Source of the DNA: an uncultured Flavobacteriaceae bacterium
GTDB lineage: Bacteria > Bacteroidota > Bacteroidia > Flavobacteriales > Flavobacteriaceae
NCBI GenBank assembly: GCA_963835675.1
Contig: CAWIGH010000005.1
Span: 271,874 to 335,873 of the forward strand
DNA length: 64,000 nt
Direction: 5' to 3'
Part shown: one piece after another, positions 5,660 to 25,472 of the stretch
Numbering within the stretch: position 1 is the first letter of the stretch
How the letters are laid out: each line of letters starts with the position of its first letter
Program-made: the position numbers and the translations under genes
The notes under the pieces: model-generated
Seen by the model: only the letters and a program-made list of their open reading frames with translations
Database searches by the model: none
What the model was told of the DNA's origin: nothing

Positions 5660-5698
5660 CCTGCCTGCCGGTTTACCCGCCTCTGGAGGGCAGGCAGG
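5660..5698 (+). repeat. 39-bp nested REP-like composite, identical to 8877-8915
   Basis: CCTGCCTGCCGG-[TTTA-CCCGCC-TCT-GGAGGG]-CAGGCAGG inserted at AA|TTATA. Confidence 0.85.
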
Positions 5699-5765
5699 TT
5701 ATACACGTTGTCGGCAGTAGTACTTATAATTATTTAAATTTATACAACCAAGCAATAGCATTTTG

Positions 5766-7838: not shown

Positions 7839-7881
7839 TATTTATAATTTAGTGTTGTGTTTTTATTTTAAAGGGTATTAT

Positions 7882-7988
7882 TGCCAACGTTTGGGCTCGT
7901 ATGTTTTTCCGATGAGAAATCAAGCGGGTTAAATATACTAAACTTTGGTGTTTCACAAAACCACAATAGATTATAGCCATTGTTAGCT
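7882..7988 (-). repeat. attC-like site S2 (107 bp)
   Basis: TGCCAAC...GTATG ... TTATAgccatt-GTTAGCT; shares GAGAAATCAA.CGGGTTAAA with S3. Confidence 0.8.
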
Positions 7989-7992
7989 ATAG

Positions 7993-8736: not shown

Positions 8737-8783
8737 AATTATAGCTAACGTTAGAGCTATGGTTTCGTTGCGGGATCGTCCGT

Positions 8784-8804
8784 CCCGCCGTGCTTTGGCG
8801 TGGG
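8784..8804 (+). repeat. 21-nt REP-like unit
   Basis: CCCGCCGTGCTTTGGCGTGGG between GTCCGT and AGGAC. Confidence 0.7.
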
Positions 8805-8876
8805 AGGACTATTCCGCTGAGAAATCAAACGGGTTAAAGATATAAATATTTAAGATAGAGTAAAAGCCATGCTGAA

Positions 8877-8915
8877 CCTGCCTGCCGGTTTACCCGCCTC
8901 TGGAGGGCAGGCAGG
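8877..8915 (+). repeat. 39-bp nested REP-like composite
   Basis: Exact copy of 5660-5698, again at AA|TTATA. Confidence 0.85.
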
Positions 8916-8944
8916 TTATAGACATTGTTATAGCCAGTTATTTT

Positions 8945-9754: not shown

Positions 9755-9798
9755 CTTTATCTTTTTTTTTGTTTGACAATGCTGCTTTTTAAAATTGG

Positions 9799-9914
9799 AT
9801 ATAACATTGTTGTATAAGATTAGTTGCGTGTTTTAAGCGACTAATTTAGCAAATACAAACCGAATAGACACGAGCGTAGCGAACTGGCGTAAGCAATTAT
9901 AGCCAGTGTTAGCC
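9799..9914 (-). repeat. attC-like site S4 (116 bp)
   Basis: ATATAAC-attgttGTATAAG ... TTATAgccagt-GTTAGCC. Confidence 0.82.
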
Positions 9915-9972
9915 TATCGTTATTATGTTCAAGTTTAGTTAAAAATTCTAATTATATAGTTTATGAATGTAA

Positions 9973-10743
9973 TTACATTGTTAATGTGAGTCCGCCATCT
10001 ACAGTAAGCGTTGAGCCAGAAATATAACTGGATTCATCTGAACAAAGAAACACAATAGCATTTGCAATCTCTTCCGGGCGACCAATTCGTTGTAAATGTA
10101 CGGTAGGAAGCAGTCCTTTATCGTACAAGTCGTCACCAACAATACCTCTCAGGCGTTGGTGCATAGGTGTTTCAGTAATACCCGGACATAAAAGGTTTAC
10201 TCTAATGCCCTTAGGTCCTAATTCGGCAGAGACACTGGTCGTTAATCCAATAAGACCGTGTTTAGATGTTACATAGGCCGATCCGGTTGGAAAACCGAGA
10301 AATGAATTCACTGAGCCTATATTCACAATTGCACCACCCAAACCAAGTTTAAGCATGGCTCTGGCCTCATATTTCATGCAAAGAAATGTTCCCTTTAAGT
10401 TGATGTCAAGAACCTGATCCCAATCATCTTCAGCAAGGTCAGTTATTCCATTTAGTTTTCCTTCAATACCGGCATTATTTATTGCATAATCCAAACGGCC
10501 AAATACTTCGATAGTATGAGCGACCATTTGCTCTACGCTTTTAGCAATCGAAACATCGGTCTTGATTGCAGACGCCTTGCCACCCTTTGCTTCAATAGAA
10601 GCTACTAAGCTATCAAGTTTCTCTTTTCGACGTGCTGCGACTACTACACTTGCACCATTCGCTGCAAAAGCTTCGGCAGTAGCTCTTCCAATACCACTAC
10701 TTGCTCCAGTTATAAGTACGACTTTTTCTTTCATATTACTCAT
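9973..10743 (-). CDS. SDR-family NAD(P)-dependent oxidoreductase (C12)
   Basis: TGASSGIG, NNAG, YVTSK. Confidence 0.92.
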   Translation of the reverse strand: MSNMKEKVVLITGASSGIGRATAEAFAANGASVVVAARRKEKLDSLVASIEAKGGKASAIKTDVSIAKSVEQMVAHTIEVFGRLDYAINNAGIEGKLNGITDLAEDDWDQVLDINLKGTFLCMKYEARAMLKLGLGGAIVNIGSVNSFLGFPTGSAYVTSKHGLIGLTTSVSAELGPKGIRVNLLCPGITETPMHQRLRGIVGDDLYDKGLLPTVHLQRIGRPEEIANAIVFLCSDESSYISGSTLTVDGGLTLTM

Positions 10744-10814
10744 TTGATTTCTTTTTAATTGGTTAGTATAATTTAAAATATTTTATCGTTGGTTTTTTGG
10801 TTGGTCATAATGTT

Positions 10815-10865
10815 GGCTAACGTGTTTGTGTATGATTTCGTTGCGCCTGCCTGCCGCAGGCAGGC
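10815..10865 (-). repeat. Truncated attC-like site S5 (one arm only) ending in a 19-nt REP-like unit (10846-10864)
   Basis: GGCTAAC-gtgtttgtGTATG-atttcgttgcg-[CCTG-CCTGCC-GCA-GGCAGG]; no TTATA...GTT arm follows. Confidence 0.72.
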
Positions 10866-10870
10866 TTTCG

Positions 10871-11206
10871 TTATCTTTCACTACTTGAACTCTTTGCACT
10901 CAATTCGTTTTTCAAATCTAATTGAAGTTTTTTGTTTGCCATTAAAAGATCTTCAAGCGCTGTTATGGCCCATGATGTTTTAATGCCTAAATCAAACAAC
11001 ATTTGATCTAACTCCACATTACCGTACTGTTCTTTTAGTTTGGGGTAGGACAAAATATTTTTTTCTCTGAGTTTATAATAATTTAGTTGATAATTATTAA
11101 ATAATTCTCTTGCATCATTGATTCCATTTTTTGCTAAAAATGGTTTTAATCAATCTTCTTTGAAACCCCATAACGGTTCAGAAGCGTCACGTACAAAAAT
11201 TTCCAA
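10871..11206 (-). pseudogene. Gene remnant with an in-frame TGA (11150-11152) and no clear start
   Basis: Frame continues upstream of ORF 10871-11053: LEIFVRDASEPLWGFKED*LKPFLAKNGINDARELF... Confidence 0.55.
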
Positions 11207-11207
11207 T

Positions 11208-12344
11208 CTAAATTAACTGATATACCATTATCTTCTTTTCTTTCCCTTTAACACTTACCTCCCCCCAGGGTTTTGTTGAAATAATTGCTTTGGTTTTTTT
11301 ATAAATGGATTCACTTATTAGAATGGCATTGGAAAGATCTGAGGTCAATGCTTCTATCCTTTTTGCTGTGTTTACAACATTACCGGTAATTGCATAGGTA
11401 AGTCTATCATCAGAACCAAGGTTTCCGGCTATTATTGGACCATAATTTAATCCAATACCTATTGTAATTTTCTCCGGTAAAATATCCTTTAAGTCCTTAT
11501 TGATCTCTTCCAGCTTTTTTATCATTTCGATTGCACAATAAGCGGATGAAATTTCAGGATCTTTAATTGGTAAGGGAGCGCCAAAAGTAGCGAAAATTTC
11601 GTCACCCGTAAATTGATTTATGACTCCATTGTGCATTTTAATTACATCTGCCATCTTTGAATAATACGTATCAAGTATGCGTACTACCTCTATAGGATTC
11701 AATTTTTCCACAATCGGGGTAAATCCTCTAATATCACAAAAAAGTAGTGCCACATTCAACTTGACACCTTCCTTAATGTCTTTTTTGTTATCAGCAATAG
11801 CGTTTTTTACGATCGACTCTGGAACATATTTCACAAATAGATCTAACGTTTTTTTCTGTTTTTCTGTCAGAGAAAGAAGTTTGGTATTTGCTTGTTCGAT
11901 TTCTTTGATTCGTTTTAATTCCCTTTTTCTTGCCTTCTCCAGTCTGTTTTCGATCTTAACATTTTCAGTTATATCATTCTGAACAGCCAGCAACTGATCG
12001 AGTTCTCCATTGATATCAAATACTGGGGCAATAGACCACTCCATATAAAATTCAGTTCCATCCTTTTTGTAATTAATTGTCTTCCCTTTCCATGCTTCTC
12101 CGGTATCGAGGATTTCCCCTAAATTTCGAAAGATATTTAGGTTTGTTTTAGAGCCTTGCAGAATTCTTGGACTTTTACCGATTACTTCCTCTCTGCTCCA
12201 ACCCGTCATTTCTTCAAAAGCTTTATTGACATAAATAATATAGGGCCCGGGAGAATCAAGTTCTGTAGTAGTAATCAATATACTTTGAGTCATTGCCTCT
12301 AATAATTTGATGGTGTTATATGAATATGGTTCTGGATTGTGCAT
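11208..12344 (-). CDS. PAS-domain class III nucleotide cyclase (C11)
   Basis: PAS (YVNKAFEEMTGW, IGKSPRILQG, NYKKDG) + coiled coil + FCDIRGFT, FTGDEI, GNVVNTAKRIE. Confidence 0.88.
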   Translation of the reverse strand: MHNPEPYSYNTIKLLEAMTQSILITTTELDSPGPYIIYVNKAFEEMTGWSREEVIGKSPRILQGSKTNLNIFRNLGEILDTGEAWKGKTINYKKDGTEFYMEWSIAPVFDINGELDQLLAVQNDITENVKIENRLEKARKRELKRIKEIEQANTKLLSLTEKQKKTLDLFVKYVPESIVKNAIADNKKDIKEGVKLNVALLFCDIRGFTPIVEKLNPIEVVRILDTYYSKMADVIKMHNGVINQFTGDEIFATFGAPLPIKDPEISSAYCAIEMIKKLEEINKDLKDILPEKITIGIGLNYGPIIAGNLGSDDRLTYAITGNVVNTAKRIEALTSDLSNAILISESIYKKTKAIISTKPWGEVSVKGKEKKIMVYQLI

Positions 12345-12453
12345 TGACTGTCAACTTATAATTTTTTGAACAAATAATCCTTGTTTTATATATTGAAATA
12401 TTCCATGGGATACAACGTGTTTGTGTATGGTTTAGCTTCGCTCGTCTGTTTCG

Positions 12454-12472
12454 CCTGCCTGCCACTGGCAGG
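12454..12472 (+). repeat. 19-nt REP-like unit
   Basis: CCTG-CCTGCC-ACT-GGCAGG. Confidence 0.8.
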
Positions 12473-12553
12473 TGTTTAAGCAACTAATTTAGCAAACATT
12501 TCACAAATAGAAAATTCCAGCAGAATTTTCGAAAGTAGGCTAGAACCAAGTAA

Positions 12554-12572
12554 CTTGTCCGCCTCTGGCGGA
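12554..12572 (+). repeat. 19-nt REP-like unit
   Basis: CTTG-TCCGCC-TCT-GGCGGA at AA|TTAATTATA; homolog at 17985-18003. Confidence 0.8.
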
Positions 12573-12581
12573 TTAATTATA

Positions 12582-12619
12582 TCCGCCTGCCACTATAAAT
12601 ATTTATTGAGGCGCGCAGG
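12582..12619 (+). repeat. 38-bp nested REP-like composite
   Basis: TCCG-CCTGCC-ACT-[ATAAATATTTATTGAGGCG]-CGCAGG at TTATA|CAC. Confidence 0.8.
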
Positions 12620-12658
12620 CACGTTGTGTGCATTGGCTTTTCTATTGTCTTCTTTAAG

Positions 12659-13138: not shown

Positions 13139-13159
13139 TGTAATTTTCGGATTAGATTG

Positions 13160-13313
13160 ATTTAACGGTTTCGGTTATGAGTAGTTGCGTGGGTTAGCAC
13201 TTAACTTTGCAAGAACGCACCAAACTGAAAATCCGTCCCGCCACGCTTTTTTAGCGTGGGAGGATTTTCAGAAGTAGGCGAGAACAAGCAATTACTTATG
13301 GCCATTGTTGGCA
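13160..13313 (-). repeat. attC-like site S7 (154 bp) with a REP-like insert at 13237-13260
   Basis: ATTTAAC-ggtttcgg-TTATGAGTAGTTGC ... GCAATTACTTATGG-ccatt-GTTGGCA. Confidence 0.85.
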
Positions 13314-13354
13314 ATAGTTTTATTTTTTAATAATATCACTTTCTCATAGAATTA

Positions 13355-14986
13355 TTAATTGTTTTCTCTGATAAGTTTGAATTCGCTTCCTTTCTTCCAT
13401 TTTGGAAAAGAATTTTCGTTGGCTAGTTTAAAACCAACTTGAAATAAAAGTTGTGCATCAAATTGAACACCACTTAACTCAGTGATGTTAGGATTGTATT
13501 CATCTGTAGGTTGATGATAAATATTTTTTCTGTAATTTTCATTCCATTGTTTGATTTTATCAATGTTTGAATTAAAACCTTCATAAGATCCTTTGGCATA
13601 AAGTGCAGGAATACCAATTTTTGCAAAATTAAAGTGATCTGATCTAAAGAAAGAACCTGCTTCAGGTTTTGGATCAGGAATTATGTAACGACCTTGGGCT
13701 ATAGCAGCTTCTTCTGCATAATCGTCTAATTCTGATTGGCCATAACCAATAACAGTGAGATCTTTCATTGGCTCTGGGCTATTAAAAGCATCCATATTAA
13801 TATTTGCCACGGTTTTTTTTGGGTTGAAAATAGGGTTTTCGGCATAAAAAGCTGAACCTAATAAACCTTGTTCTTCTCCAGTTACTGCCATAAAGACAAT
13901 AGAACGTTTTGTTACATTACTTTTCTTGAACGCTTCTGCTATAGCTAATAAGCCTGAAGTTCCAGATGCATTATCTACAGCACCATTATAAATTGAATCA
14001 CCTTCGATAGCTTTACCAATACCAAAATGATCCCAATGTGCAGAGTAAATTATAAATTCGTCTTTTCTTTCAGTACCAGGTATAAGTGCTACTACATTCT
14101 TAGAAACGTCTTTCTTAATTTTATTTTTAATGTTTACCGAAACGTTTAAATTTAACGGAATCGGTTTAAAGCTTTTATTTCTAGCTATGGTTTTATAATC
14201 TTGCTCTTTCATGGAAGAAGCATCAAACATTTTTTCAGCACTTTCACCACTTATCCATGATTCGACATTTAAAAGAGGCAAATCACTTTCTATTATTAAA
14301 TGAGCGCCACTCCCACTAGATTCTATTACATTCCATCCATAAGAAGCTGGTTCGGTATCATGAATTATAATTAGACCATCAGCACCTTGCCTAGCAGCTT
14401 CCTCAAATTTATAAGTCCAACGTCCATAATAAGTCATTTCATTACCTTTAAATAAGGTTGAATCACCAGATTTAAAACCTGGGTCATTAATTAAAACTAC
14501 AGCTGTTTTACCTTTCCAGTCGATACCTTCATAATCATTCCATCCATATTCTGGAGCAACAATTCCATAACCTGCAAAAACAAGTTCAGAATTTTCAAGA
14601 CTAACTTCAGTCACAGTTTTATTTGTCGTGGCTACAAAATCTTTTAAGAGTTTCAAATTGAAACTTCCATTTTTACCAGAAATCACCATATTTTCAGAAG
14701 GAGTTCCTGTTATTTCTATCATAGGAACATCTTGAAAAAAACTATCACCATTTCCTGGTAAAAGCCCCAGTTTCTCAAACTCATCTTTTAAATAATTCAC
14801 GGTTTTTACTTCTCCTTCAGTAAATGGTTTTCTCCCTACGAATTCATCTGATGCTAACCGTTCAATGTGATTACCAATAGTTGTTTGATCTACTTCAACT
14901 ATGTTTATTTTTAACTTTTTGTCGTTTTTACAACTGCTAAAAAGCACTGCTGCTACTGCTAAAATTTTTAAATAATTTTTTATCAT
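13355..14986 (-). CDS. M28-family metallopeptidase lipoprotein with PA-like insert (C9)
   Basis: Lipobox FSSC; AHWDH, GAVDNASG, EEQGLLGS, NMD, YHQPTD. Confidence 0.92.
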   Translation of the reverse strand: MIKNYLKILAVAAVLFSSCKNDKKLKINIVEVDQTTIGNHIERLASDEFVGRKPFTEGEVKTVNYLKDEFEKLGLLPGNGDSFFQDVPMIEITGTPSENMVISGKNGSFNLKLLKDFVATTNKTVTEVSLENSELVFAGYGIVAPEYGWNDYEGIDWKGKTAVVLINDPGFKSGDSTLFKGNEMTYYGRWTYKFEEAARQGADGLIIIHDTEPASYGWNVIESSGSGAHLIIESDLPLLNVESWISGESAEKMFDASSMKEQDYKTIARNKSFKPIPLNLNVSVNIKNKIKKDVSKNVVALIPGTERKDEFIIYSAHWDHFGIGKAIEGDSIYNGAVDNASGTSGLLAIAEAFKKSNVTKRSIVFMAVTGEEQGLLGSAFYAENPIFNPKKTVANINMDAFNSPEPMKDLTVIGYGQSELDDYAEEAAIAQGRYIIPDPKPEAGSFFRSDHFNFAKIGIPALYAKGSYEGFNSNIDKIKQWNENYRKNIYHQPTDEYNPNITELSGVQFDAQLLFQVGFKLANENSFPKWKKGSEFKLIRENN

Positions 14987-15019
14987 TTGTATTTTAAATT
15001 AAATGTGTGGTTTAATTAT

Positions 15020-15145
15020 TGCCAACGTGTTTGTGTATGGTTTACCTTTGGTGATTATTCTCCCAAGCTTGTTTTTGTTTAACATCATTTTGTTTCAAAA
15101 TTAAGCTAAAATAGATTTGTTTTTTAACTCAGTTCTTTGTTGTGG
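15020..15145 (-). repeat. Internally collapsed attC-like site S8 containing a ~94-bp palindromic insert shared with S10
   Basis: TGCCAAC-gtgtttgtGTATG ... GTTGTGG; the TTATA inner arm is missing. Confidence 0.65.
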
Positions 15146-15195
15146 GCAGTTCATTCTCACTTTATTTCGTTTAGTATAAATTCAATTAACCTTGT

Positions 15196-15618
15196 CTATT
15201 TAAGCCAACCTTTTTTAGTGGCTCTTTTACTATAGAAATAAAGAAATGTTGCTATCGCAATAACTACAATAGGAATAATAGCGTAAAATACAATTGAGGT
15301 TTTTTTAATGTCAAAAATAAGTAGCCAATAAAATTCTATAAAAAGCAAAGAAATTAATGATATTGCAAAAAATTTAGAAGCAATTTTTTTTCTCATAAAA
15401 AGCATAAAACTGCCTATCATCTCAGAAAATAAAGCAAATAAAAATACAACCATATACCAAAAAGGAATTGACTGTATTTTCTCGAATTCTTCGGTAGTTG
15501 AATATTTTTGTAGAAAATCAATTTCATAAGAACTAAAGTAAATTTCAATTATATTCCACAAAAGAGCAAAAATGGCTACGAGCCAAAAGGAAGTCGGTGG
15601 TTTAATATCTAGTCCCAT
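15196..15618 (-). CDS. Small multi-pass membrane protein, unknown function (C8)
   Basis: KPPTSFWLVAIFALLWN; four hydrophobic segments. Confidence 0.75.
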   Translation of the reverse strand: MGLDIKPPTSFWLVAIFALLWNIIEIYFSSYEIDFLQKYSTTEEFEKIQSIPFWYMVVFLFALFSEMIGSFMLFMRKKIASKFFAISLISLLFIEFYWLLIFDIKKTSIVFYAIIPIVVIAIATFLYFYSKRATKKGWLK

Positions 15619-15753
15619 AATAAAAAGATTAATTTAGTGTATCATAAAGATAACTAACTTATTGAGGATTTTGATAAAATAATATTTTCGTTAGTTAAAT
15701 TCAAGTGCTAAGCGCAACTTTTTCATTATTTTTTTATTTCTTTTAATTTAATG

Positions 15754-16548
15754 TCAGCCAAATGCAGCTCTCTTTGCGTGCTGCACGTTTGTAAAGACCT
15801 GATCGAGATAAAATTCATCTTTCAAGATGCCATTTACACGCTCTGCGATGGCATTCTCGTAGCAATGGTTTTCTTCAGTCATACTAATATCTATCTTATT
15901 TCTTTTAAGTATTTGAGTGTATACATTGCTGCAATACTGTATTCCTCTGTCTGAATGATGAATAAGTTGTTTAATATTCTTGGATTGATAAATGGCTTTA
16001 TTAAGCGCTCTAACGCATCCTTTAAGTTCTAAACTATCACTAAGGTCATAACCTACAATCTTTCTAGAATACATGTCTGTAATGAGCTCGAGATAACAAA
16101 ATCCTTTTACGGTTCTTATATAGGTAATATCAGATGCCCAAACTTGGTTAGGCCTTGTAATATCTAAATCTTTAATGATGTTTTTATACTTGTAGAACCT
16201 GTGCAACGAATTGGTTGTTCTGGCACTGTATTTCTTTCTAAGTGTTAGCATTTGATGTTTTCTAAGGACATTAAATAACGTGTCTCTACCGACTTTAAGA
16301 TTGGCTTTGGTAAACTCATCTTCCAATGATATCTTAAGTTTCCGCACGCCTTCTCGAGGAAGGGATCTGCGTCTTTTCATTACAATTTCTATAATTTGTT
16401 GTTCTAATTCTAAACGTTTATCAGCTCTAATTTTGTACTTATAATAAGCATCGCGTTTAAGTCCAAAACAATGGGTTATAGTAGATAAAGAAGCAAATCC
16501 CTTAGATTTCTCTTTGGCTTTGATTAAGGCTTTATGCTTAGCTTTTTT
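15754..16548 (-). CDS. IS3 OrfB DDE transposase, C-terminally truncated
   Basis: WASDITY, HHSDRGIQY, NAIAERVNGILK; ends prematurely ...HAKRAAFG*. Confidence 0.85.
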   Translation of the reverse strand, partial: KKAKHKALIKAKEKSKGFASLSTITHCFGLKRDAYYKYKIRADKRLELEQQIIEIVMKRRRSLPREGVRKLKISLEDEFTKANLKVGRDTLFNVLRKHQMLTLRKKYSARTTNSLHRFYKYKNIIKDLDITRPNQVWASDITYIRTVKGFCYLELITDMYSRKIVGYDLSDSLELKGCVRALNKAIYQSKNIKQLIHHSDRGIQYCSNVYTQILKRNKIDISMTEENHCYENAIAERVNGILKDEFYLDQVFTNVQHAKRAAFG

Positions 16549-16934
16549 TTTAGTTCGGCAACAGATTTGTAGCCTAGGTCTTCTGCCGCTACTTCCAGGT
16601 ATGAATCTAATACCAAGGCATCCAGATCTTTTTTTAAGAGTAGCTTTTTAAGCTGTTCAATCTCTTTTTGCAGTGCCTTAATCCGAGTTATTTCGTCTTT
16701 TGTTTCCACTTTTAATCTGGTGTTCATTAGGTCTTTACGATTGTACTTTCTAATCCATTCATTAATGGTCGTGAGAGCAATACCATAAAGTTTTCCTAAC
16801 TGATTCTTGTTTAGTTTTCCTGTACTAATTTCGTCTAAAATTTTTAATTTGAAAGGTTCGCTGTACCGTCTAATTACTTTGTCATTTTTATACATAATGT
16901 TTAAAATTATGTAGCCTTTATTCAGGACGGGTCA
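15763..16934 (-). mobile_element. IS3-family insertion sequence, 3'-truncated (only one inverted repeat)
   Basis: End reads TGACCCGTCCTGAATAAAGGCTACA on the minus strand from 16934; orfA/orfB in -1 relation; no matching IR near 15750. Confidence 0.9.
16524..16895 (-). CDS. IS3 OrfA (HTH)
   Basis: RRYSEPFKLKIL...TTINEWIRKY; A9G run at 16542-16551 contains the A-AAA-AAG -1 frameshift motif. Confidence 0.85.
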   Translation of the reverse strand: MYKNDKVIRRYSEPFKLKILDEISTGKLNKNQLGKLYGIALTTINEWIRKYNRKDLMNTRLKVETKDEITRIKALQKEIEQLKKLLLKKDLDALVLDSYLEVAAEDLGYKSVAELKKKLSIKP

Positions 16935-16941
16935 AAATTAG

Positions 16942-17071
16942 CCACAACGGTACGTATATGCTACGTGCCGTCGTGATTGAATTTAGTACCGTTAAAATTA
17001 ATCTTTTTCGTGTATAATTAAACTATCATTTTATGAACCTAAATCAGCATGGAGCATATATATTGTTGTAG
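16942..17071 (-). repeat. attC-like site S9 (130 bp)
   Basis: CCACAAC-ggtacg-TATATGCT ... AGCATATA-tatt-GTTGTAG. Confidence 0.82.
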
Positions 17072-17083
17072 GGCGTATTTATC

Positions 17084-17521
17084 TTATTTAAATTCATAAA
17101 TAACTTTGTTTTTAACAATCTTCTTTACAAATAACCAAACGAATAAAGATATTACTCCACCGATTAAAGTCCCATAAATATCTTTCCAGTCAAATACTCC
17201 ACGAGGCAAATAGGGTTGCAAAATTTCATAAAGAATATATCCAATCACAACAAAACCAATTACACGAAATACTTTCTTTCTTGGTGAGTTCAATATTGCC
17301 AACATGAAAAATATTTGAACGATTATTCCTCCCGAATTTCCGATACTATCAGCAATTCCATAATCATCAATGTTGTTTGTATAAATATATGGTCTATAAA
17401 TGTTTCTCCCGATCTCGGTCAAAAAGAAAAATAAAACTGCAATCAAGAAATAAATAATCCTTTTACTATCAATCGTTTTTATTGATGCTTTATCTGTAAA
17501 AAAGTTATTATTATTTTCCAT
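17084..17521 (-). CDS. Membrane protein with a weakly VanZ-like C-terminus (C7, gene 2)
   Basis: Four TM segments; YEILQPYLPRGVFDWKDIYG. Confidence 0.65.
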   Translation of the reverse strand: MENNNNFFTDKASIKTIDSKRIIYFLIAVLFFFLTEIGRNIYRPYIYTNNIDDYGIADSIGNSGGIIVQIFFMLAILNSPRKKVFRVIGFVVIGYILYEILQPYLPRGVFDWKDIYGTLIGGVISLFVWLFVKKIVKNKVIYEFK

Positions 17522-17563
17522 TTTTTGACTTCTAATAAACTCTTTTTAAGAATTATGAATCTC

Positions 17564-17746
17564 TTATTTTTGCTTTTCAACAACAAGGATATAATCAATT
17601 TTCGCTGTTGCCCCCATTAGTTGAAAAGTTGGACGAACATTAGGGATTATTGAAACAACTTCTCCACCAAGTTTATTTAAATATTGCTCTAATTTTTCTT
17701 GCATGTTTTCATTTTTGACCTCAATTCTATGTACTTTGTATTTCAA
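17564..17746 (-). CDS. 60-aa hypothetical protein (C7, gene 1)
   Basis: ATG start ~40 bp after the S10 core; protein-like composition. Confidence 0.65.
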   Translation of the reverse strand: MKYKVHRIEVKNENMQEKLEQYLNKLGGEVVSIIPNVRPTFQLMGATAKIDYILVVEKQK

Positions 17747-17782
17747 ATTATATATTTTATGGTTAAAGTTCTTCTATATGCC

Positions 17783-18063
17783 ATACAACGTGTTTGTATA
17801 TGGTTTAGCTTCGCTGATTATTCTCTCAAGCTTGTTTTAGTTTAGCATCATTTTGTTGCAAAATGCTGAACAAAAATCAGCTTGTTTCAATAGTTTTTTT
17901 GTGGTTAAGCAACTAATTTAGTAAACAAAAACGTGCCAGAGAAAATTCCGAAGGAATTTTCCGAATAAGCACTTGCCAAAGCAACCTGTCGGCCTTTGGC
18001 GGATTAATTATACCCGCCTGCCACTATAAATATTTATTGAAGCGGGCAGGCACGGTGTTGCCC
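17783..18063 (-). repeat. attC-like site S10 (281 bp) with ~90-bp palindromic insert (17815-17904), 19-mer (17985-18003) and 38-mer (18013-18050)
   Basis: ATACAAC-gtgtttGTATATG ... TTATA[insert]cacggt-GTTGCCC. Confidence 0.8.
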
Positions 18064-18126
18064 ATTGTAGTTTTTTTATTTTGAAAATATTTTTTTATTT
18101 TTATTTTATAATTAAAATTCTGTGTC

Positions 18127-18486
18127 ATGAGAAATCACATTTTATTTGCTCTTTTTATAATTATGTTTTCAGGTGTTATTTATTCTCAAAGTTCTAATTC
18201 AAGTATAAAAATTGGAGATGTTTTTGTTATAGGTGAAGTTTACAATAATAATTATAAACATATTAATTTCCCAAGAGCTAACTTCATTATAAAAAAAGGA
18301 GGAATTGCCAATTACAATAATGTTAAAGATAAAAAGGTCGAAGTTACGTCAATTAAAGAGAAGAAAGATGGTAGATTAATTGCTACTATTAAATTGGCTT
18401 CTAATAAATTCTTTTTTAACAGCCACAAATATGTAACTGTTGAAATTAGTGAAGCAATTAGTCAAAAAGAATTATTAAGAATTTGA
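18127..18486 (+). CDS. Secreted hypothetical protein, inverted relative to the array (inside C6)
   Basis: Signal peptide; HINFPRANFIIKKGGIANY; stop lies 2 bp from the convergent gene's stop. Confidence 0.8.
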   Translation: MRNHILFALFIIMFSGVIYSQSSNSSIKIGDVFVIGEVYNNNYKHINFPRANFIIKKGGIANYNNVKDKKVEVTSIKEKKDGRLIATIKLASNKFFFNSHKYVTVEISEAISQKELLRI

Positions 18487-18488
18487 GT

Positions 18489-19538
18489 TTATTTATTAAG
18501 TTTAATAAATTCATATGTTTTCTCACTTAAGTTTAGAATGACGTGATAACTTCCTGATTTAACCTTAATATTGTCGCCATAGAAATAGGTGTTACCAAAA
18601 GGAAATTCATCTCCTCCCCAATTAAAATTCCAATTTTCACCTTCTCTGAATTTAAGCGAACCGTCGGATAAAATGATATCTCCCTCCCAGATTGCCTTTG
18701 ATTCATTAGTTAATGTAAGAGGAAAGTTTTTGGTCCAGTTATTATGTTGAGTTGCATCTCCTACAAGCCCAATATTTGAATAAAGTAATTTAACCTTTGG
18801 ATAATAGTCTTGAATCAAGCGTTTATTAGTATTTGTTAAGTTGATGATATTATCTATGAAAATCAAACTCGTAAATTTTATACTTCTTGATGATTTTAGA
18901 GCGTTTTGAAACGTAGAACTCTCAAGTAGTTTGAGGGTACGTTTGATATCGCTATCATCAAAAAAGGTAGAATCCATATTTTGATAATCATTTAATGCAG
19001 AATAACCAAAAGTAATGCTTGGATAGGGTAAATTCAATTCATCTAAAAATGATGTGATATCTTTCCTACTGCCATTATAACCTTCCTTAATCGCTTTACC
19101 GTATGAAGAAAGGCTCTTGTTTAAATTACTCTGCTTTTGATTTTTAGGGTTGAATTTAAGGTAACCCAAAAGATATGAAATTTCAGAGTTTAAATCAGAA
19201 GGTTCTAAATCCAAGTAAAACAATAAATGCGGTAGCAATTTATTATTTATGCCTTCAGGATTCTGAACTATGTTATCTATAATTTCTATCTGTTTTGATA
19301 CTTGACGTCTAATTAGAGTAAGATTTTCTGAATCTTGGTCTATGACAGTATACATTTGTTGTAAAACAGCCTTAAATTCATCATTGGTTTTCCTTGATTC
19401 GTTCCAGTTGTTTAATTGTAGGGCAATCAAAATTCCGATTACTACAAGAAAAATTTCGCCTAAAGCATATTTAAAATACTTTCCAGTTTTGTTTTCCATG
19501 AGCAAGTTTTGGCGAATTTTTCTAAAGAATTTTATCAT
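18489..19538 (-). CDS. DUF6090-type membrane-anchored protein with C-terminal SusE/SusF-like beta domain (C6)
   Basis: MIKFFRKIRQ...KYALGEIFLVVIGILIALQLNNWN; C-terminal LKFREGENWNFNWG...SGSYHVILN. Confidence 0.75.
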   Translation of the reverse strand: MIKFFRKIRQNLLMENKTGKYFKYALGEIFLVVIGILIALQLNNWNESRKTNDEFKAVLQQMYTVIDQDSENLTLIRRQVSKQIEIIDNIVQNPEGINNKLLPHLLFYLDLEPSDLNSEISYLLGYLKFNPKNQKQSNLNKSLSSYGKAIKEGYNGSRKDITSFLDELNLPYPSITFGYSALNDYQNMDSTFFDDSDIKRTLKLLESSTFQNALKSSRSIKFTSLIFIDNIINLTNTNKRLIQDYYPKVKLLYSNIGLVGDATQHNNWTKNFPLTLTNESKAIWEGDIILSDGSLKFREGENWNFNWGGDEFPFGNTYFYGDNIKVKSGSYHVILNLSEKTYEFIKLNK

Positions 19539-19562
19539 TGGTTAGCGGTTTCTGATAATGAA

Positions 19563-19757
19563 GCACAACGGTTTAGCTATGAACAGTACGGGAGCAAACT
19601 AGCGTTTGCTTTCCGCCACGCACATAGCGAAATCTTTTTGTTTTGTTTTTTCTTTTTTTGTTTAAAGCAAAATCCCAAAGATTTTGCGGACTTCATAAAA
19701 ATACGCAAACCCTACGAATAAGCCCGAAACCCGTATTGTTTATAGGTTGTGTTATAT
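19563..19757 (-). repeat. attC-like site S11 (195 bp)
   Basis: GCACAAC...TATGAACAGTACGGG ... CCCGTATTGTTTATA-ggttgt-GTTATAT. Confidence 0.85.
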
Positions 19758-19769
19758 GGCGTTATTATT

Positions 19770-20387
19770 TTATTTCAAAAACGGTATTGCAGGTAAATAC
19801 CAACTTTGTTTTCCCTTTTTTATCCTTATATAATTTTTAAATATTAATATAAGATTATATAAATAAAGAATTCCTGTAAGAACAACATAGATTATTTCTT
19901 TATCCATTCTAAAATTGATTAAGGATAATACTATATCAAAAAGGTTAAAATCAAATTTAATATATGAACCTTTTGTTGCTACCATAAAAATGGAATATAT
20001 CAACAAAGTCCAAGTAATCTGAAAACTGATTATTTTTTTTCCATAATTGTCTACAAATTTTATTTTGTCTTTTTTCAAAATCCACATTACTAATGGGATT
20101 ATTATTCCTAATAATGGATTAAATAATAGACCTGTTAAGGCACTTAAGTTCAAAAGAGTCAGATATCCTTTATCTTCAATATCTGTCCATTCTAAAAGGT
20201 CGTCTGGAGTTACTCCAAGAGCTTGTGTTAATTTTATCAACGTATCGCCTCTCGGGATTGATTCGCCTTTTTCAATTCGTTGAACTGTTCTTAGGCTTAA
20301 TTTTGATTCTTCCGATAATTGCTCTTGAGAAAATCCTTTTCGGCTTCGTAAGTCTTTAATTTTAATTGCTAAGTTTTGATTATTCAT
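19770..20387 (-). CDS. XRE-family HTH regulator fused to a DUF4870-like membrane domain (C5)
   Basis: IKDLRSRKGFSQEQLSEESKLSLRTVQRIEKG; LGIIIPLVMW...GKKIISFQITW. Confidence 0.85.
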   Translation of the reverse strand: MNNQNLAIKIKDLRSRKGFSQEQLSEESKLSLRTVQRIEKGESIPRGDTLIKLTQALGVTPDDLLEWTDIEDKGYLTLLNLSALTGLLFNPLLGIIIPLVMWILKKDKIKFVDNYGKKIISFQITWTLLIYSIFMVATKGSYIKFDFNLFDIVLSLINFRMDKEIIYVVLTGILYLYNLILIFKNYIRIKKGKQSWYLPAIPFLK

Positions 20388-20413
20388 TTTGGACTATTTT
20401 AATGATTACTCAG

Positions 20414-20472
20414 CAAAGATATTTTTATGTTGTTCTAGTTGTTGCGTCATTATTATGTCAATCTTATGACAT
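20414..20472 (-). promoter_or_regulatory. Cassette-internal promoter and palindromic operator
   Basis: Perfect Bacteroidota -7 box TATCTTTG (minus, 20414-20421); ATGTCA-n6-TGACAT palindrome at 20455-20472. Confidence 0.65.
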
Positions 20473-20497
20473 TTCTGCCAGTGTTCGGCTTAAATGC

Positions 20498-20630
20498 AAA
20501 TAACGGTCTCGTATAACCGTCAGTTACGGGATTAAAGTTAATAATTTTCGTTTTGGCACTGACCTTAGTAATTCCGAGTGGATTCGGACGTAGTCGAATC
20601 CGCCGTAATTGCGGTTATACATTGTTGGCA
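20498..20630 (-). repeat. attC-like site S12 (133 bp)
   Basis: AAATAAC-ggtctc-GTATAACCG ... CGGTTATAC-att-GTTGGCA. Confidence 0.87.
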
Positions 20631-20670
20631 ACAGGCTTTTTATCATTTCTATAATTAGAGTTTTCAACTT

Positions 20671-21339
20671 TTAATCATTATTTGGTCTTTCAGGAATGTA
20701 AACAAGATCAATTTCGATATCATTTCCATATTTAACAATCATAGAACATAGGACAGAGACACTTTTTCCATTGTTAATAGCGGGCTTCATTATCGGCATT
20801 TTTCTAAGCACTCTCAAAATTTCAGCTTGAATGGTTACTTCCGCATCTCTGACTTTCATGCCGGTTAAATTTCCGTTTTCAGTGATTATAAAAAAGGCTT
20901 CAACCTTTTTTGGTTCTGAAAGATTTAATTCTTTCAATAAACTCAAGTTAAATTCACGCTTTACAAATGCCGCTACTTTTTCATTGAAACATTCTCTTGT
21001 TTGTTCTATTGAGAGTTCCTCACAACCATTATATACTGGGGCAATTTCTACATCTTTTAATATCATACTATTGTCAGTAGTATAATTAGCTAAACCGTCA
21101 TCGTGAGATACAATGCTACATAAACTTAATAAAGCCTGTTCCTCTATTTCTGTCATATTTCCTTGTGCCATCACTTGTTCCTGAACAGCATTTATTTTCG
21201 TTATTAAATCACTTTCTGTGTTTTTTACCGAGTTGGATTCTTCCTTACAAGAAAAGCATAATAGAACAATAAAAATGGTTGAAACGACCATTAAATTTTG
21301 TGATTTAAATTTTGTTTTACGATTAAATTTGTATTTCAT
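20671..21339 (-). CDS. Lipoprotein with a TonB C-terminal-like domain (C4)
   Basis: Lipobox CFSC; APVYNGCE, FIITENGNL, LRVLRKMPIMKPAINNGKSV. Confidence 0.7.
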   Translation of the reverse strand: MKYKFNRKTKFKSQNLMVVSTIFIVLLCFSCKEESNSVKNTESDLITKINAVQEQVMAQGNMTEIEEQALLSLCSIVSHDDGLANYTTDNSMILKDVEIAPVYNGCEELSIEQTRECFNEKVAAFVKREFNLSLLKELNLSEPKKVEAFFIITENGNLTGMKVRDAEVTIQAEILRVLRKMPIMKPAINNGKSVSVLCSMIVKYGNDIEIDLVYIPERPNND

Positions 21340-21362
21340 AATTTTTTGGTTTTTCAGCTTGT

Positions 21363-21493
21363 TGACAACGGTTTTGTGTATGAGCAGTAGCAGATTTAAG
21401 CAACTACTTTTCGGGATACAAGATAATTTAATTTAATGAAATAGCGGTTCAGGTTGACACCCAAACCGCTATTGCTTATACACGTTGTTTTGC
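21363..21493 (-). repeat. attC-like site S13 (131 bp)
   Basis: TGACAAC-8nt-GTATGAGCAGTAGC ... GCTATTGCTTATAC-5nt-GTTTTGC. Confidence 0.87.
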
Positions 21494-21532
21494 AACGTTT
21501 TTTATAAATTCTTTCTACTTATTTTTATTAAA

Positions 21533-22300
21533 TTAATCTTTATTAAAAGTTACTTTACCTGTTTCCATATCATAAAGAGCAGATATAATCATAATTTCTC
21601 CATTATCTTCCATCTTTGCCATTGTTGGTGATTGCTCTCTTATATTTTTTACAGTACGCATCGCATTGTTGTTGATAACAAGGTCTGTAAATTCAGCATT
21701 TTTGGTAGAGCGCTCACCATCGAATTCAGTTTCATTTACAGCTGGTTGTATTTCATCGATTAGGTCTGCAAGAGAGTTCATACCTAATGCTTTAGCATCA
21801 ACTTCATCAATAGTAGATTTGACTGCACCACAGGCCGTATGTCCCATTACAATGACTACTTTAGAACCAGCTACAGCAGTAGCAAATTCCATTGAGCCAA
21901 CGATATCAGCATTTTCAATATTACCTGCGACACGTGCTACGAAAATATCACCTATGCCTAAATCAAATACATCTTCTACAGGTACACGACTATCTACGCA
22001 CGAAAGAACAATAGCTTTAGGGTATTGGCCTATCATCGCTTTTCTACGTTGTGCTGAATGGTCGCGTTGGGTTAGATTATTATTTATAAAATTCTCATTA
22101 CCCTTTTTTAAACGCCCAATGATTTCTTGAGGTGTCATTTCAGCTTGTTCTTCAGCTGTTAATATACTCTCAACAACCTTTTCTTCAACAAGTTCTGTTT
22201 GTGAATTTTGTGCTGTTGGTTCTTGTTTTTTTGTTTCCTGACAAGATGTTAAAAATAATAGTGTCAAGAAAGTGGTCAATGGTAAAAATAGTTTTCTCAT
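21533..22300 (-). CDS. Beta-class carbonic anhydrase, lipoprotein (C3, gene 2)
   Basis: Lipobox LTSC; SCVDSRVP, RVAGN, GHTACGAV. Confidence 0.93.
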   Translation of the reverse strand: MRKLFLPLTTFLTLLFLTSCQETKKQEPTAQNSQTELVEEKVVESILTAEEQAEMTPQEIIGRLKKGNENFINNNLTQRDHSAQRRKAMIGQYPKAIVLSCVDSRVPVEDVFDLGIGDIFVARVAGNIENADIVGSMEFATAVAGSKVVIVMGHTACGAVKSTIDEVDAKALGMNSLADLIDEIQPAVNETEFDGERSTKNAEFTDLVINNNAMRTVKNIREQSPTMAKMEDNGEIMIISALYDMETGKVTFNKD

Positions 22301-22324
22301 ATGTTTATAGTTTAAAGTGAAAAT

Positions 22325-23023
22325 TTATAGTGTGTGGTGTAGGCTAAATTGTAATTGTCCTTTTTGCCAATTAGTGGTGGTCTGCTCCATCCATCCGAAT
22401 TGTAATCTCAAATTGTTCTTTAATGCATAACCAATACCTAAATAGGTTCTGTTTCGGTCAAAAAACTCAACATTACGCCCATTACCAATATTACGCTCTC
22501 CATTAATAAATAACTCATTATAAAATGCGAAATATGGCGTGCCTTTAGCTAAGGTTGTTCCTTTGAATGGAACATTTACGAAGAGGTTGTAACGATAGCG
22601 TGTTCTAAAATCTTGATTTTCCACCCATCTTTGTTCATAACGAAACCTATGTGTTAATAAAAGTCTTTTAAGAATTGTATTTGAGAACAAGGCTTCTTGA
22701 TATATACGATTTTCAGAAACAGGATTATCTATATCAGCACCGAACTGTCCTGTTGTAATATTGGCAAAACCAAGCGTGAATTTAACTCCTGAATCTGATG
22801 GTTTATATGTTAAACCAGACCGTAACAGTAACTGTTCCCTATCTCCGAGTCCTCGCCAATCACGGTATTGAAAATCTCCCTGAACTCCCCAATTAGATTC
22901 TTTGAAAGTTGTATTATAAAAATACATATACCAAGCCCCTAATTGATTGTTATCTGGTTCTTGGGCATTAACTTGTAATAAAGTTAGCAAACTGATAGTG
23001 AAAGGTAAAAGGATTCTTTTCAT
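22325..23023 (-). CDS. DUF2490-family outer-membrane beta-barrel (C3, gene 1)
   Basis: GAWYMYF, QLLLRSG, HRFRYEQRW, FDRNRTYLGIGY. Confidence 0.85.
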   Translation of the reverse strand: MKRILLPFTISLLTLLQVNAQEPDNNQLGAWYMYFYNTTFKESNWGVQGDFQYRDWRGLGDREQLLLRSGLTYKPSDSGVKFTLGFANITTGQFGADIDNPVSENRIYQEALFSNTILKRLLLTHRFRYEQRWVENQDFRTRYRYNLFVNVPFKGTTLAKGTPYFAFYNELFINGERNIGNGRNVEFFDRNRTYLGIGYALKNNLRLQFGWMEQTTTNWQKGQLQFSLHHTL

Positions 23024-23103
23024 ATTGTTTAATGTTATTTGATAAAATTAAAACAAAAACAATACCGTAATTATATTGAGAACCGCATTTTAATAAAAAA
23101 TTA

Positions 23104-23137
23104 ACAGTATTACTTGTTGTGTTAATAGTGTTACTTT
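23104..23137 (-). promoter_or_regulatory. Two operator-like copies resembling the TetR palindrome at 26922-26934
   Basis: ACAGTATTACTTG (10/13) at 23104 and ATAGTGTTACTTT (11/13) at 23125 versus ATAGTATTACTAT. Confidence 0.5.
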
Positions 23138-23162
23138 CAATAAAGATGATTCACGAAATCTT

Positions 23163-23314
23163 GCACAACGTTTCTGTATATGATTTGTGCGGCTTAAAAT
23201 CCGTCCCGCCACGCCTTGGCGTGGGAGGATTTTCAGCTATTCAAATCAGATATTAAATATAATAGTTTTTAAATGATGTAGGAATGCAAGCATGAATTAT
23301 ATACGTTGTTGGCA
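23163..23314 (-). repeat. attC-like site S14 (152 bp) with a REP-like insert at 23205-23225
   Basis: GCACAAC-6nt-GTATATGATTTGTGC ... GCATGAATTATATAC-3nt-GTTGGCA. Confidence 0.87.
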
Positions 23315-23322
23315 GCAGTTAT

Positions 23323-24256
23323 TTATTTATCTGTTCCAAATTCAAGTTGTCGCTCGTATTCTTTATTCATCAAAATAGCCTTTTGATTCTTGGATTAATC
23401 CATCCTCATTTATAGTCCATTCCTCAAATCCGCTAATGTTTACTTTATTTCCAGTTCCATTGGTTCCGTTATTTGTTCCAGTCAAGTGTCCAATAGAATC
23501 GTGTTTTGTCCGATTTAGTAATTAGACTATCCATTGAAACAATCATATCCGGAAAAGCATCCATAAATCCTTTAGCAACATTTGTTATTGCTTCAGTACC
23601 TTTTGCTGGTTCCCCATCATTTATCTGTAGAACGCCATCTTCAGCGAAAAAGGAGGAGACAAAATTTGGTCTTTGACTGCACCACACTTGTGCGTAACTC
23701 TTGGCAAAAACCTCCAAATCAAATTTTTTCAACTCTTCTGGTAAGGGTGTATTTGTGAATGAGATGTTAATGAATTTCCATTCACCATCTTCCTTGATTA
23801 GGGTGAAATTGTCGATGTTATTTGTCCGTGGAACACCATATGAATGTAGGGTAGCATCAGCCCAAACAAAAGCGATTTGTCCTTTATTTATAAGGATTTT
23901 GTATTCATTCACAGGTTCATAAAAGGGCTTCCGTTCTCGGTTTTTTTGTGATTCAAAATATTCGCCAATTGTGATGACGGAATTTTTCGAGACTCCATCT
24001 CGAACTATTGCACTTCCCAAGTTTGCCTTGTCTGAAATTATGGAATCCAAAGTCTGAAAGTCAGAATTACCTACAGCAAACAAGAGCTTTTCTACAAGGG
24101 CTATTAATTCTTGTTCCTCCGCATTCCAAGTATTTTCTTTTTGTGCTTCAACAACCTTTTCAGTCTATTTAGTTTTATTTGATTGGACTGACAACTAAAA
24201 AATAAGCTAGAAACAACTACAAGAGATAATATTACAATACTCAATGTTTTTTTCAT
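23323..24256 (-). CDS. Tandem NTF2/SnoaL-like lipoprotein, broken by at least three indels (C2)
   Basis: MKKTLSIVILSLVVVSSLFFSC; core ORF 23469-24083; C-terminus ...TGTNNGTNGTGNKVNISGFEEW...EYERQLEFGTDK* recovered in shifted frames. Confidence 0.72.
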
Positions 24257-24275
24257 AATTGGATTTTTTAATTGC

Positions 24276-24409
24276 TGCCAACGGTTTTGTATAAGAATAA
24301 TTGCGTGTGCAAGCCACTAACTTACTAAAAATGGAACGAACCAGAGGAAAATCCGTAGGATTTTCCGAGAAGGTAAGAAGCAAGCAATTATTTTTACACG
24401 GTGTTGGCA
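24276..24409 (-). repeat. attC-like site S15 (134 bp)
   Basis: TGCCAAC-6nt-GTATAAGAATAATTGC ... GCAATTATTTTTACAC-3nt-GTTGGCA. Confidence 0.87.
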
Positions 24410-24417
24410 CAAGTATT

Positions 24418-25242
24418 TTATAATTCATATTTCCATTTTTGAGTTTCATTGTCGAAAGCTATACTAAATCCTCTCATAGAATTGACAGGTATGTTCGTTT
24501 CTTTGTGCCTTTTTATTTCCCATTTTGAAATTTTACTAACCAGTTCTATTGCATCTTTTTGAAATTCGGTCAGAGGTTTTTTAATTGAAACCTCAAATTT
24601 GATTGGAAGATTAAAATTAGAATCTATTTCGGTTTTATATCCTCTATTGGTTGTAACAGAGATTAATTTTCCATTTTTGTCAATAAGCAGTTTTAAAAAA
24701 GAATGAGGATTTTCATAGTTCTTTTTTTTACCAAGTTTTAAAATTGAATCTACATTTGTAATTGGGTTTGGATAATTAAAGTCGTTCTCTAAAAAATAAA
24801 TATAATTTTCAATTTTAAAAGAATTCCCATTGTCAAATACTCTTTGTTCTTTTTCTGATATATTTCTTTTATCAGTTGGTTTAGAATTTGAGCAAAAATA
24901 TCCAAAAGTCAGTTTGTTGTTTCTGCGTTTAGCATAGACAAGCCAATTTTCGCCAATTTCCACATTCCAATCACATGAAGTCCAAATTCCAGTATAATCT
25001 CCTTCAGAATTTAAAGTAAATTCCAATGTTGTAGGTTCGTTGCTTTTTTTATAATGTTTTAAAATATCAAAGGTAATTTTGTAAGTAAGAGAATCAGATG
25101 AATATACTTTAGAAACAGCTTTTCCTTCAAAGACATATTCAGCTGAAAAAAATTCAAGTGCAGGTTTTGGAACATCACAAACACAAGAAAATGCTCTTGT
25201 GAAAACTAGTGTTAAAATTAATGTAGCAATGATTTTTTTCAT
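24418..25242 (-). CDS. Secreted hypothetical protein with a Cys-containing NTR/TIMP-like N-terminus (C1, first cassette)
   Basis: Signal peptide then SCVCDVP...AEYVFEGKA...WTSCDW...YFCSNS. Confidence 0.72.
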   Translation of the reverse strand: MKKIIATLILTLVFTRAFSCVCDVPKPALEFFSAEYVFEGKAVSKVYSSDSLTYKITFDILKHYKKSNEPTTLEFTLNSEGDYTGIWTSCDWNVEIGENWLVYAKRRNNKLTFGYFCSNSKPTDKRNISEKEQRVFDNGNSFKIENYIYFLENDFNYPNPITNVDSILKLGKKKNYENPHSFLKLLIDKNGKLISVTTNRGYKTEIDSNFNLPIKFEVSIKKPLTEFQKDAIELVSKISKWEIKRHKETNIPVNSMRGFSIAFDNETQKWKYEL

Positions 25243-25247
25243 ATTTG

Positions 25248-25323
25248 TGCCAACTCGTTATATGTGGAACTAATATACACATTATCCCTATTTTTTTCCG
25301 GATAAGAGGAAATTTTGTTATCC
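25248..25323 (-). other. attI-like head site of the array
   Basis: Lone core (minus strand CATATAACGA-GTTGGCA) with no partner inverted arm upstream; TTATCC/GGATAA hexamers at 25282, 25300 and 25318. Confidence 0.6.
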
Positions 25324-25472
25324 TTTTTGGGAATTAAATATTGCTATTACTAAAACGGTTACTCATGAACCATTTTACCTTTGGTTTGGCTCAACAACCG
25401 GCCTAAGCGAAAGCCTATTTCGGACAAGTAGGTGAGTGGTGTGTTTATATTTATAAATCAATGCCTTAAAAC

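Follow-up and report, generated by a model that had tools for sequence, protein, structure and literature searches.

Hairpin sites with strand-asymmetric wobble pairing in an integron-like cassette array of Flavobacteriaceae

The window analysed here, a stretch of 64,000 nucleotides from an uncultured Flavobacteriaceae bacterium (assembly GCA_963835675.1, contig CAWIGH010000005.1, positions 271,874 to 335,873), contains a single array, from about 4760 to about 25254, of about 16 related sites of 105-286 nt each. They are separated by open reading frames (ORFs) that are, according to ORF calls in the window, nearly all on the minus strand. The sites fold into hairpins in which the strand complementary to the genes carries a large excess of G-T wobbles over A-C mismatches. 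With a probability of roughly 0.7 we regard them as the attC equivalents of an integron-like cassette system of Bacteroidota, in which bottom-strand hairpins are recombined by a Xer-like enzyme. Our analysis confirms that the observation is real and far beyond chance, and it supports the interpretation given in an earlier sequence-only reading of this DNA, namely single-strand hairpin recombination by a tyrosine recombinase related to, yet distinct from, IntI.

Read on the plus strand, each site opens with (N)CAAC-G(G/T)T... at its 5' end and closes with ...(A/G)(T/G)T-GTTG(N) at its 3' end, with complementarity between the 3' box of each site and the 5' box of its successor (compare S14, GTTGGCAGCAG, with S15, TGCTGCCAAC). 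The AAC and GTT cores are present in all complete window sites but one, in which both cores are mutated. The bottom strand of S7, for instance, runs in the order TTTAAC, GGTTTC and L stem, and then returns through the L stem, ATT and GTTGGCA.

For seven sites (S7, S9, S11, S12, S13, S14 and S15; Table 1) the arms of the L stems were aligned by a strand-symmetric procedure in which G-T and A-C are given an equal score. The alignments reproduced exactly the mismatches counted in the sequence-only reading (14 G-T, 2 A-C, located in S13 and S15, and 1 other, in S9), and they bore out that the wobbles lie on the plus strand, i.e. the bottom strand relative to the cassette genes. The further claim that this strand "folds much better" stands in its direction but not in its degree: folding energies calculated with DNA parameters favour the plus strand over the minus strand in six of the seven sites, but the gap is about 2 kcal/mol or about 8% (mean plus-minus difference -2.1 kcal/mol), and both strands fold. 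In S9 the long hairpin is absent from the minimum free energy (MFE) structure of the minus strand. When all 14 complete window sites are included, the plus strand is better in 12, with means of -26.7 vs -24.7 kcal/mol.

The same sites are widespread in the family. Because the genome is AT-rich, matching the two arms with simple regular expressions was not specific enough, and we used instead a covariance model (R1), built from ten window sites and comprising AAC/GTT and an L stem of 13 bp. The model finds further small arrays elsewhere in the same genome and matches the site, about 135-137 nt long, in 166 of 201 family genomes, which correspond to 165 of 200 genera. These matches score as high as the training sites, are of uniform length (133-140 nt) and often lie at contig ends. 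Over 405 kb of arrays from seven genomes, 292 sites were recovered by the covariance model and 284 by nhmmer, and site orientation is uniform within arrays (284/284). In one genome (G155) the region C1:160001-246000 contains one array, about 80 kb long, that holds about 97 sites; many of its cassettes recur at several places as copies of 98-100% identity, which suggests that recombination has been active there recently.

Pairing statistics were drawn from the 150 best sites of the seven genomes. The 16 modelled pairs comprise 2015 Watson-Crick, 332 G-T and 5 A-C combinations. Apart from 2 T-G, the AAC/GTT pairs are invariant in all 150 sites, and conserved G-T pairs occupy positions 7 (108/150) and 12 (139/150) of the L stem, while neighbouring pairs covary. 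Paired cells amount to 98.4% as compared to 79.8% in shuffles, and changes on both sides are found at 8 of the 13 L pairs; together these figures indicate that pairing is under selection. The bottom strand is the more stable one in 143 of the 150 sites, by a mean of -3.08 kcal/mol (14%), and its MFE structures contain 3.45 G:T pairs on average vs 1.09 on the top strand. As a control, adjacent segments outside the sites, matched in strand and length, gave +0.59 kcal/mol, and composition therefore does not explain the asymmetry. A mutational bias was also considered as the cause of the G-T excess and was rejected, because the wobbles sit at fixed conserved positions and the control segments lack the asymmetry.

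The hairpins also share an unequal arm geometry. The R'-side spacer had been described as the longer one, and in every site the AAC arm is indeed longer by 2-3 nt; the lengths of 8 vs 5 nt given for S7 and S13, however, become 6 vs 3 nt when the neighbouring pairs, GG/CC or GT/AC, are assigned to the stem. Spacers of 6 and 3 nt are found in 137 of the 150 related sites. The three opposite spacer positions are occupied by G-T (145/150), by G-T or T-G (115/150) and by T-A or T-G (113/150), and with this pairing, which is mostly of the wobble type, three pyrimidines bulge out of the AAC arm. The absence of an obligatory extrahelical base was likewise upheld, given that a single bulged base in the L stem occurs in only one of the seven sites (S12), on the AAC arm. 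Among the 150 sites an extra L-stem base is present in 31, on the AAC arm only, and the 3' arm of this stem is free of inserted bases throughout. For S15 a register with two extrahelical bases in the 5' arm, obtained by hand alignment, was dropped, as the MFE structure and the model alignment both yield an uninterrupted stem that contains one G-T and one A-C.

Duplicated cassettes provide evidence on how the units move. Among 908 homologous pairs, the downstream site is 93% identical and the upstream site 73% (745 vs 158), and we conclude that a gene and the site downstream of it move together, as they do in integrons. Since complementary cassette ends do not reveal which box is cut, the duplicated cassettes were used to locate the exchange. 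Where duplicates lie in different contexts, identity starts or stops within C-A-A-C-G, the bottom-strand 5' box, and the partner sites differ in the spacer right after AACG. Tyrosine recombinases cut the strand whose bound arm is 5' of the spacer. Taken together with this polarity, the breakpoints at the 5' box point to cleavage of the bottom strand at the R'|spacer junction, and the unlike spacers of the partners fit the exchange of one strand better than a classical two-strand exchange over a homologous overlap. The top (coding) strand was considered as the substrate because the extra nucleotides oppose its own AAC, as they do in the canonical bottom strand, but it was rejected on account of the breakpoints, which lie at the other box, of the polarity of cleavage and of the wobbles that favour the bottom strand. 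The folded bottom strand is thus the likely recombination substrate, and we infer single-strand recombination from the wobble asymmetry, the breakpoints, the cleavage polarity and the unlike spacers.

The IntI model TIGR02249 has no match above its cut-off in this genome (96.9% complete) or in the 201 family genomes. The best match is P0001, a protein of 319 aa; its gene (C1:375665-376624) directly precedes another array of such sites and is co-oriented with the cassettes of that locus. The protein scores 204 bits with a XerA-type model and 193 bits with TIGR02249 (cut-off 265), the latter in two pieces; its closest solved relatives are 4a8e and 5hxy, both of Xer/XerA type, and its catalytic motifs look intact in the sequence. 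Residues 31-219 of P0001 align with 9-195 of VchIntIA and residues 224-297 with 245-318, and VchIntIA 196-244 is left without a counterpart. In the VchIntIA-VCR structure of MacDonald et al. 2006 this segment reportedly contains the residues holding the extrahelical bases. Orthologues of P0001 are about 393 aa long and possess an additional N-terminal domain (about 70-95 aa) without Pfam match but with the motif W-S/T-x-x-x-K-x-W-Y-x-x-N; a search upstream of P0001 found no trace of this domain. In 26 of the 27 genomes in which positions were available for both gene and array, the orthologue lies at the same end of the array and in the same relative orientation, an arrangement also seen in named loci of Algibacter, Gilvibacter, Polaribacter, Jejudonia, Algoriphagus and a Chitinophagales metagenome-assembled genome (MAG). 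The related but distinct tyrosine recombinase postulated by the sequence-only reading has therefore been found: it is Xer-like, falls below the IntI cut-off, lacks an equivalent of VchIntIA 196-244 and stands at the array head in 26 of 27 genomes.

Outside the family, too, P0001 has homologues (35-44% identity) that are followed by sites; the attI core AAC|TCGTTTATATG is retained at a locus from another class, and one Bacteroidales MAG shows a weak site match downstream of such a homologue. Recombinase homologues were furthermore noted in MAGs labelled as Calditrichales, Gemmatimonadota and an Undinarchaeales archaeon, and the Calditrichales locus shows the opposite arrangement, with the sites located upstream of the gene.

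No recombinase gene was found within the window array, only a remnant of 20 codons at 25291-25350, which tblastn matched to recombinase residues 300-319. It adjoins an attI whose top strand reads ...CACATATAACGAG|TTGGCAC, and the remainder of the gene is absent. The window array has kept its head and lost its enzyme. The genome's one recombinase copy is devoid of the N-terminal domain found in orthologues, and the array is probably no longer active. A terminator-like GC hairpin is located just upstream of the attI remnant, near 25470-25510.

These observations can be combined into a model. A cassette unit consists of one ORF and, behind it, a site of about 135 nt. The strand opposite to the genes, which is the plus strand in the window, folds into a hairpin. 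In its R box (N)CAAC pairs with GTTG(N); the three spacer positions that follow pair mainly as wobbles (G-T, G-T or T-G, then T-A) and leave a 3-nt pyrimidine bulge solely on the AAC arm, and the L stem has at least 13 bp and two conserved G-T wobbles. On the coding strand the wobbles turn into C-A mismatches, which weakens the recombinase-proximal part of the hairpin there. The Xer-like tyrosine recombinase, encoded at the array head and co-oriented with the cassettes, with attI adjoining its stop codon, would carry out the exchange in the 5' box of the bottom strand, at AA|C. Because the enzyme lacks the IntI insertion, which reads extrahelical bases, and the sites lack such bases on the opposite arm, we propose that the choice of strand is encoded by the wobbles together with the one-sided bulge.

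Several observations weigh against this reading. When the core arms are taken by themselves, the difference between the strands is only about 1 kcal/mol, each strand of the window sites still folds, S13 folds equally well on both, and S10 is reversed, being the sole site with a better minus strand. The conservation of the G-T pairs is in part a matter of inheritance, and sites bearing such pairs had been used to train the model; the counts are accordingly not counts of independent events. Furthermore, the extra nucleotides of the favoured strand are found on the AAC arm, which corresponds to the geometry of the top, non-recombined strand in true integrons. Finally, the only array recombinase copy of this genome, P0001, is without the N-terminal domain of its orthologues.

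The sites might, on the other hand, be ordinary double-stranded core sites of a Xer-like recombinase, in which the inverted repeats are paired binding sites and a hairpin never forms. The closest solved relatives of P0001, enzymes of Xer/XerA type, act on duplex sites, attI resembles a simple duplex core, and fold z-scores are similar on both strands. A duplex, however, is blind to the difference between G-T and A-C, yet these occur in a ratio of 332:5, with wobbles covarying as G-T and T-G; the stem covaries over at least 13 bp although about 100 nt lie between its arms, the crossover-adjacent spacers are unlike between partner sites, and the 3-nt difference in arm length has no meaning in a duplex. 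We consider this explanation unlikely. Much less probable is that the array represents a cluster of attC sites lacking an integrase (CALIN), derived from a classical integron and composed of ordinary IntI-dependent attC sites. The AAC/GTT cores, the grammar of ORF plus site, cassette ends that complement each other and a G-T bias of the bottom strand resembling that of Nivina 2016 would all be expected under it, whereas no IntI exceeds the cut-off in this genome or in the 201 family genomes, 166 of which bear the sites, the 6/3 spacers and the missing extrahelical bases of the opposite arm do not fit, and a different recombinase is consistently linked.

A structure at the RNA level, such as a terminator, a processing site or an antisense RNA, would account for the position of the sites directly after stop codons, and a G-U bias is typical of structured RNAs. 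We regard it as highly improbable, because the wobbles lie on the strand antisense to the cassette mRNAs, so that the mRNA would have C-A mismatches, because an Rfam scan of the window matched zero families and the stems lack a trailing T-run, and because the cassette breakpoints fall inside the site core. With hundreds of copies per genome, many of them at contig ends, and smaller GC-rich hairpins nested in some sites, one may also think of a selfish repeat resembling repetitive extragenic palindromic elements (REP) or miniature inverted-repeat transposable elements (MITE), which spreads by itself between genes and independently of a recombinase. The uniform orientation within arrays (284/284 sites), the single site per cassette, the duplication of genes jointly with their downstream site and the beginning of arrays at a recombinase gene leave this explanation with hardly any probability.

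In attC sites the bottom strand is stabler by 2.12 kcal/mol (7.6%), forms 1.24 vs 0.39 G:T pairs and is enriched in G, and in canonical sites each arm has a spacer of five to six bases, with extrahelical bases close to L'', in the arm across from the bottom-strand AAC (Nivina 2016, PMC5027507). As a G-T bias and a stabler bottom strand are thus published for ordinary attC sites, they do not mark the present system as distinct; the bias is already known, and it is stronger here at the same ratio. The new elements are the 6/3 geometry with its bulge, the wobbles at conserved positions and a recombinase that lacks the IntI insertion.

Among described systems the nearest are integrons, namely sedentary chromosomal ones with the 'inverted integrase' layout, and the rAID-1 arrays of Bacteroidales. 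Shared with integrons are a unit of ORF plus imperfect palindromic site, AAC/GTT cores with a crossover at the bottom-strand AAC, complementary cassette ends, an attI adjoining the recombinase gene, a bottom strand stabilised by G:T pairs and G enrichment, a 6-nt spacer on the cleaved arm, arrays of up to about 100 cassettes with very similar sites, a cassette boundary within the core triplet, and a gene that moves with its downstream site. In contrast to attC, the opposite spacer has 3 nt instead of 5 and is wobble-paired with half of the 6-nt spacer, which leaves the 3-nt bulge; the two or three extrahelical bases of attC on the opposite arm are absent, an extra base occurs occasionally on the AAC arm, and the L stem has two conserved G-T positions. 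The enzyme differs from IntI by scores below the cut-offs, by the lack of the VchIntIA 196-244 insertion, by the unrelated domain, about 95 aa long, at the N-terminus of the orthologues and by its co-orientation with the cassettes. In spacer geometry, extrahelical bases and IntI insertion, three characters that define attC and IntI, the system thus falls outside both. With at least two arrayed sites and no integrase gene nearby, the array resembles a CALIN in form only, the sites being non-canonical. According to IntegronFinder 2.0, almost no integrons exist in Bacteroidetes.

Xer/dif and archaeal XerA share the catalytic motifs and the two-domain core of the recombinase, but those systems use one short duplex site per replicon for dimer resolution; cassette arrays, long hairpin sites and pairing that differs between the strands are all foreign to them. 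A closer architectural likeness is found in the rAID-1 arrays (2019, bioRxiv 10.1101/471110; PMC12247911), in which a XerD-like recombinase lies 5' of co-oriented short genes of low G+C content, with conserved intergenic repeats described as "reminiscent of integrons". These papers treat biogenesis as an open question and do not give a site structure, a crossover or a strand model; rAID-1 is defined by a recombinase more than 44% identical to B. fragilis BF9343_RS08045 and by immunity-gene content, its cassettes encoding orphan immunity proteins. Both systems belong to the same phylum and have a XerD-like 5' recombinase with at least two co-oriented genes (at the C1 locus and in 26 of 27 genomes), a likeness of architecture; in the window only the tail of the recombinase gene represents it. 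In a general Pfam scan the window cassettes encode varied enzymes and unknowns. No published account of the present flavobacterial arrays, or of how their sites are built, was found in the literature searched.

The window array is flanked by the pst operon and a TetR/SulP pair and is broken up by an IS3-type element (Table 1). This element lies within 15015-17076, at the expected place of the 3' half of S8 (orfA 16524-16895, orfB 15754-16380; rve and HTH_Tnp_1 ORFs at 15754-16895 in Pfam), and the 3' half of S8 has been lost beside the insertion. The cassette ORFs include, by Pfam, a peptidase M28, a VanZ-like protein, HTH/DUF4870, a beta-carbonic anhydrase, DUF2490, a SnoaL-like protein and several unknowns; a short ORF at 18127-18486 without Pfam match is the one exception to their minus-strand orientation. 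Site 5490-5722 has both core triplets changed (AAC to AAT, GTT to GTC) and looks like a dead site in a decaying array. Short GC-rich hairpins (e.g. CCGTCCCGCCACGC...GCGTGGGAGG and CCCGCCTGCC...GGCGGGCAGG) are inserted in the loops of several sites, among them the inner loop of S7, at 13230-13262, 23200-23232, 8780-8810 and 5540-5572, and also at 4920-4962, 12585-12620 and 18010-18048; they make the sites longer and contribute to the folding energy. Adjoining the distal array end, pstS is split into two ORFs that represent PBP_like_2 halves (3888-4734). Local GC skew tracks the gene strand, and the assembly consists of contigs.

Table 1. Features of the cassette array in the window. Energies are folding energies of the plus/minus strand in kcal/mol; G-T, wobbles in the L stem; spacers, AAC arm vs opposite arm in nt.
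Feature	Position	Strand	Match	Energy	G-T	Spacers	Remarks
Distal array part	4760..12636	+					sites 4760-4978, 5490-5722, 7878-7992, 8737-8936, 9796-9917, 12408-12636
Distal half-site	near 10800-10870	+					part of the same array
Site S7	13158..13320	+	R1, 95.2 bits	-28.0/-26.1	4	6 vs 3	
Cassette ORFs	13355..25242	-					each followed by its site
Site S8	15015..15101	+	repeat families; 90% identity to S10 5' half				5' half-site only (CCAAC GTGTTTGTGTATGG...)
Site S9	16938..17076	+	R1, 62.3 bits	-17.1/-13.7	1	5 vs 3	
Site S10	17781..18066	+	nhmmer	-42.2/-45.1			long, with inserted modules
Site S11	19558..19765	+		-32.3/-30.3	2	7 vs 5	3' core = GTT at 19751, matching S12 5' box
Site S12	20496..20636	+	R1, 82.4 bits	-20.3/-17.4	1	6 vs 3	GTATAACCG-T-CAGT subfamily; the bulged base is a T
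Site S13	21360..21497	+	R1, 102.7 bits	-17.1/-17.3	2	6 vs 3	strands equal in folding
Site S14	23160..23320	+	R1, 94.6 bits	-26.8/-24.4	3	6 vs 3	
Site S15	24273..24412	+	R1, 93.2 bits	-22.3/-20.0	1	6 vs 3	z -3.7
Array head	25243..25350	-	92% identity over 108 nt to C1 locus				attI and last 20 recombinase codons

In the established view of integrons, the IntI-specific domain and the extrahelical bases of attC enable the single-strand, strand-selective recombination of cassettes. Here the same cassette grammar, AAC crossover and bottom-strand bias are found at a very large scale, in arrays reaching about 80 kb with about 100 sites and in a phylum previously thought to be nearly free of integrons, without the IntI domain and without extrahelical bases. 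Whether the system is a phylum-wide analogue of the integron in Bacteroidota, in which a Xer-like recombinase devoid of the IntI insertion acts on folded single-stranded sites, which chooses its strand by conserved and covarying G-T wobbles and a 3-nt bulge on the cleaved arm instead of extrahelical bases and which supplies the mechanism behind rAID-1, is a wider question on which we see the chances as about even; it could be an independent or an ancestral solution. Tools of the IntegronFinder type probably overlook such arrays. If our reading is true, the recombination of hairpin sites would not be exclusive to IntI, the rules of strand selection would be open to simple mutation (G-T to G-C, or a shift of the bulge), and the rAID-1 arrays of gut Bacteroidales would gain a concrete site model.

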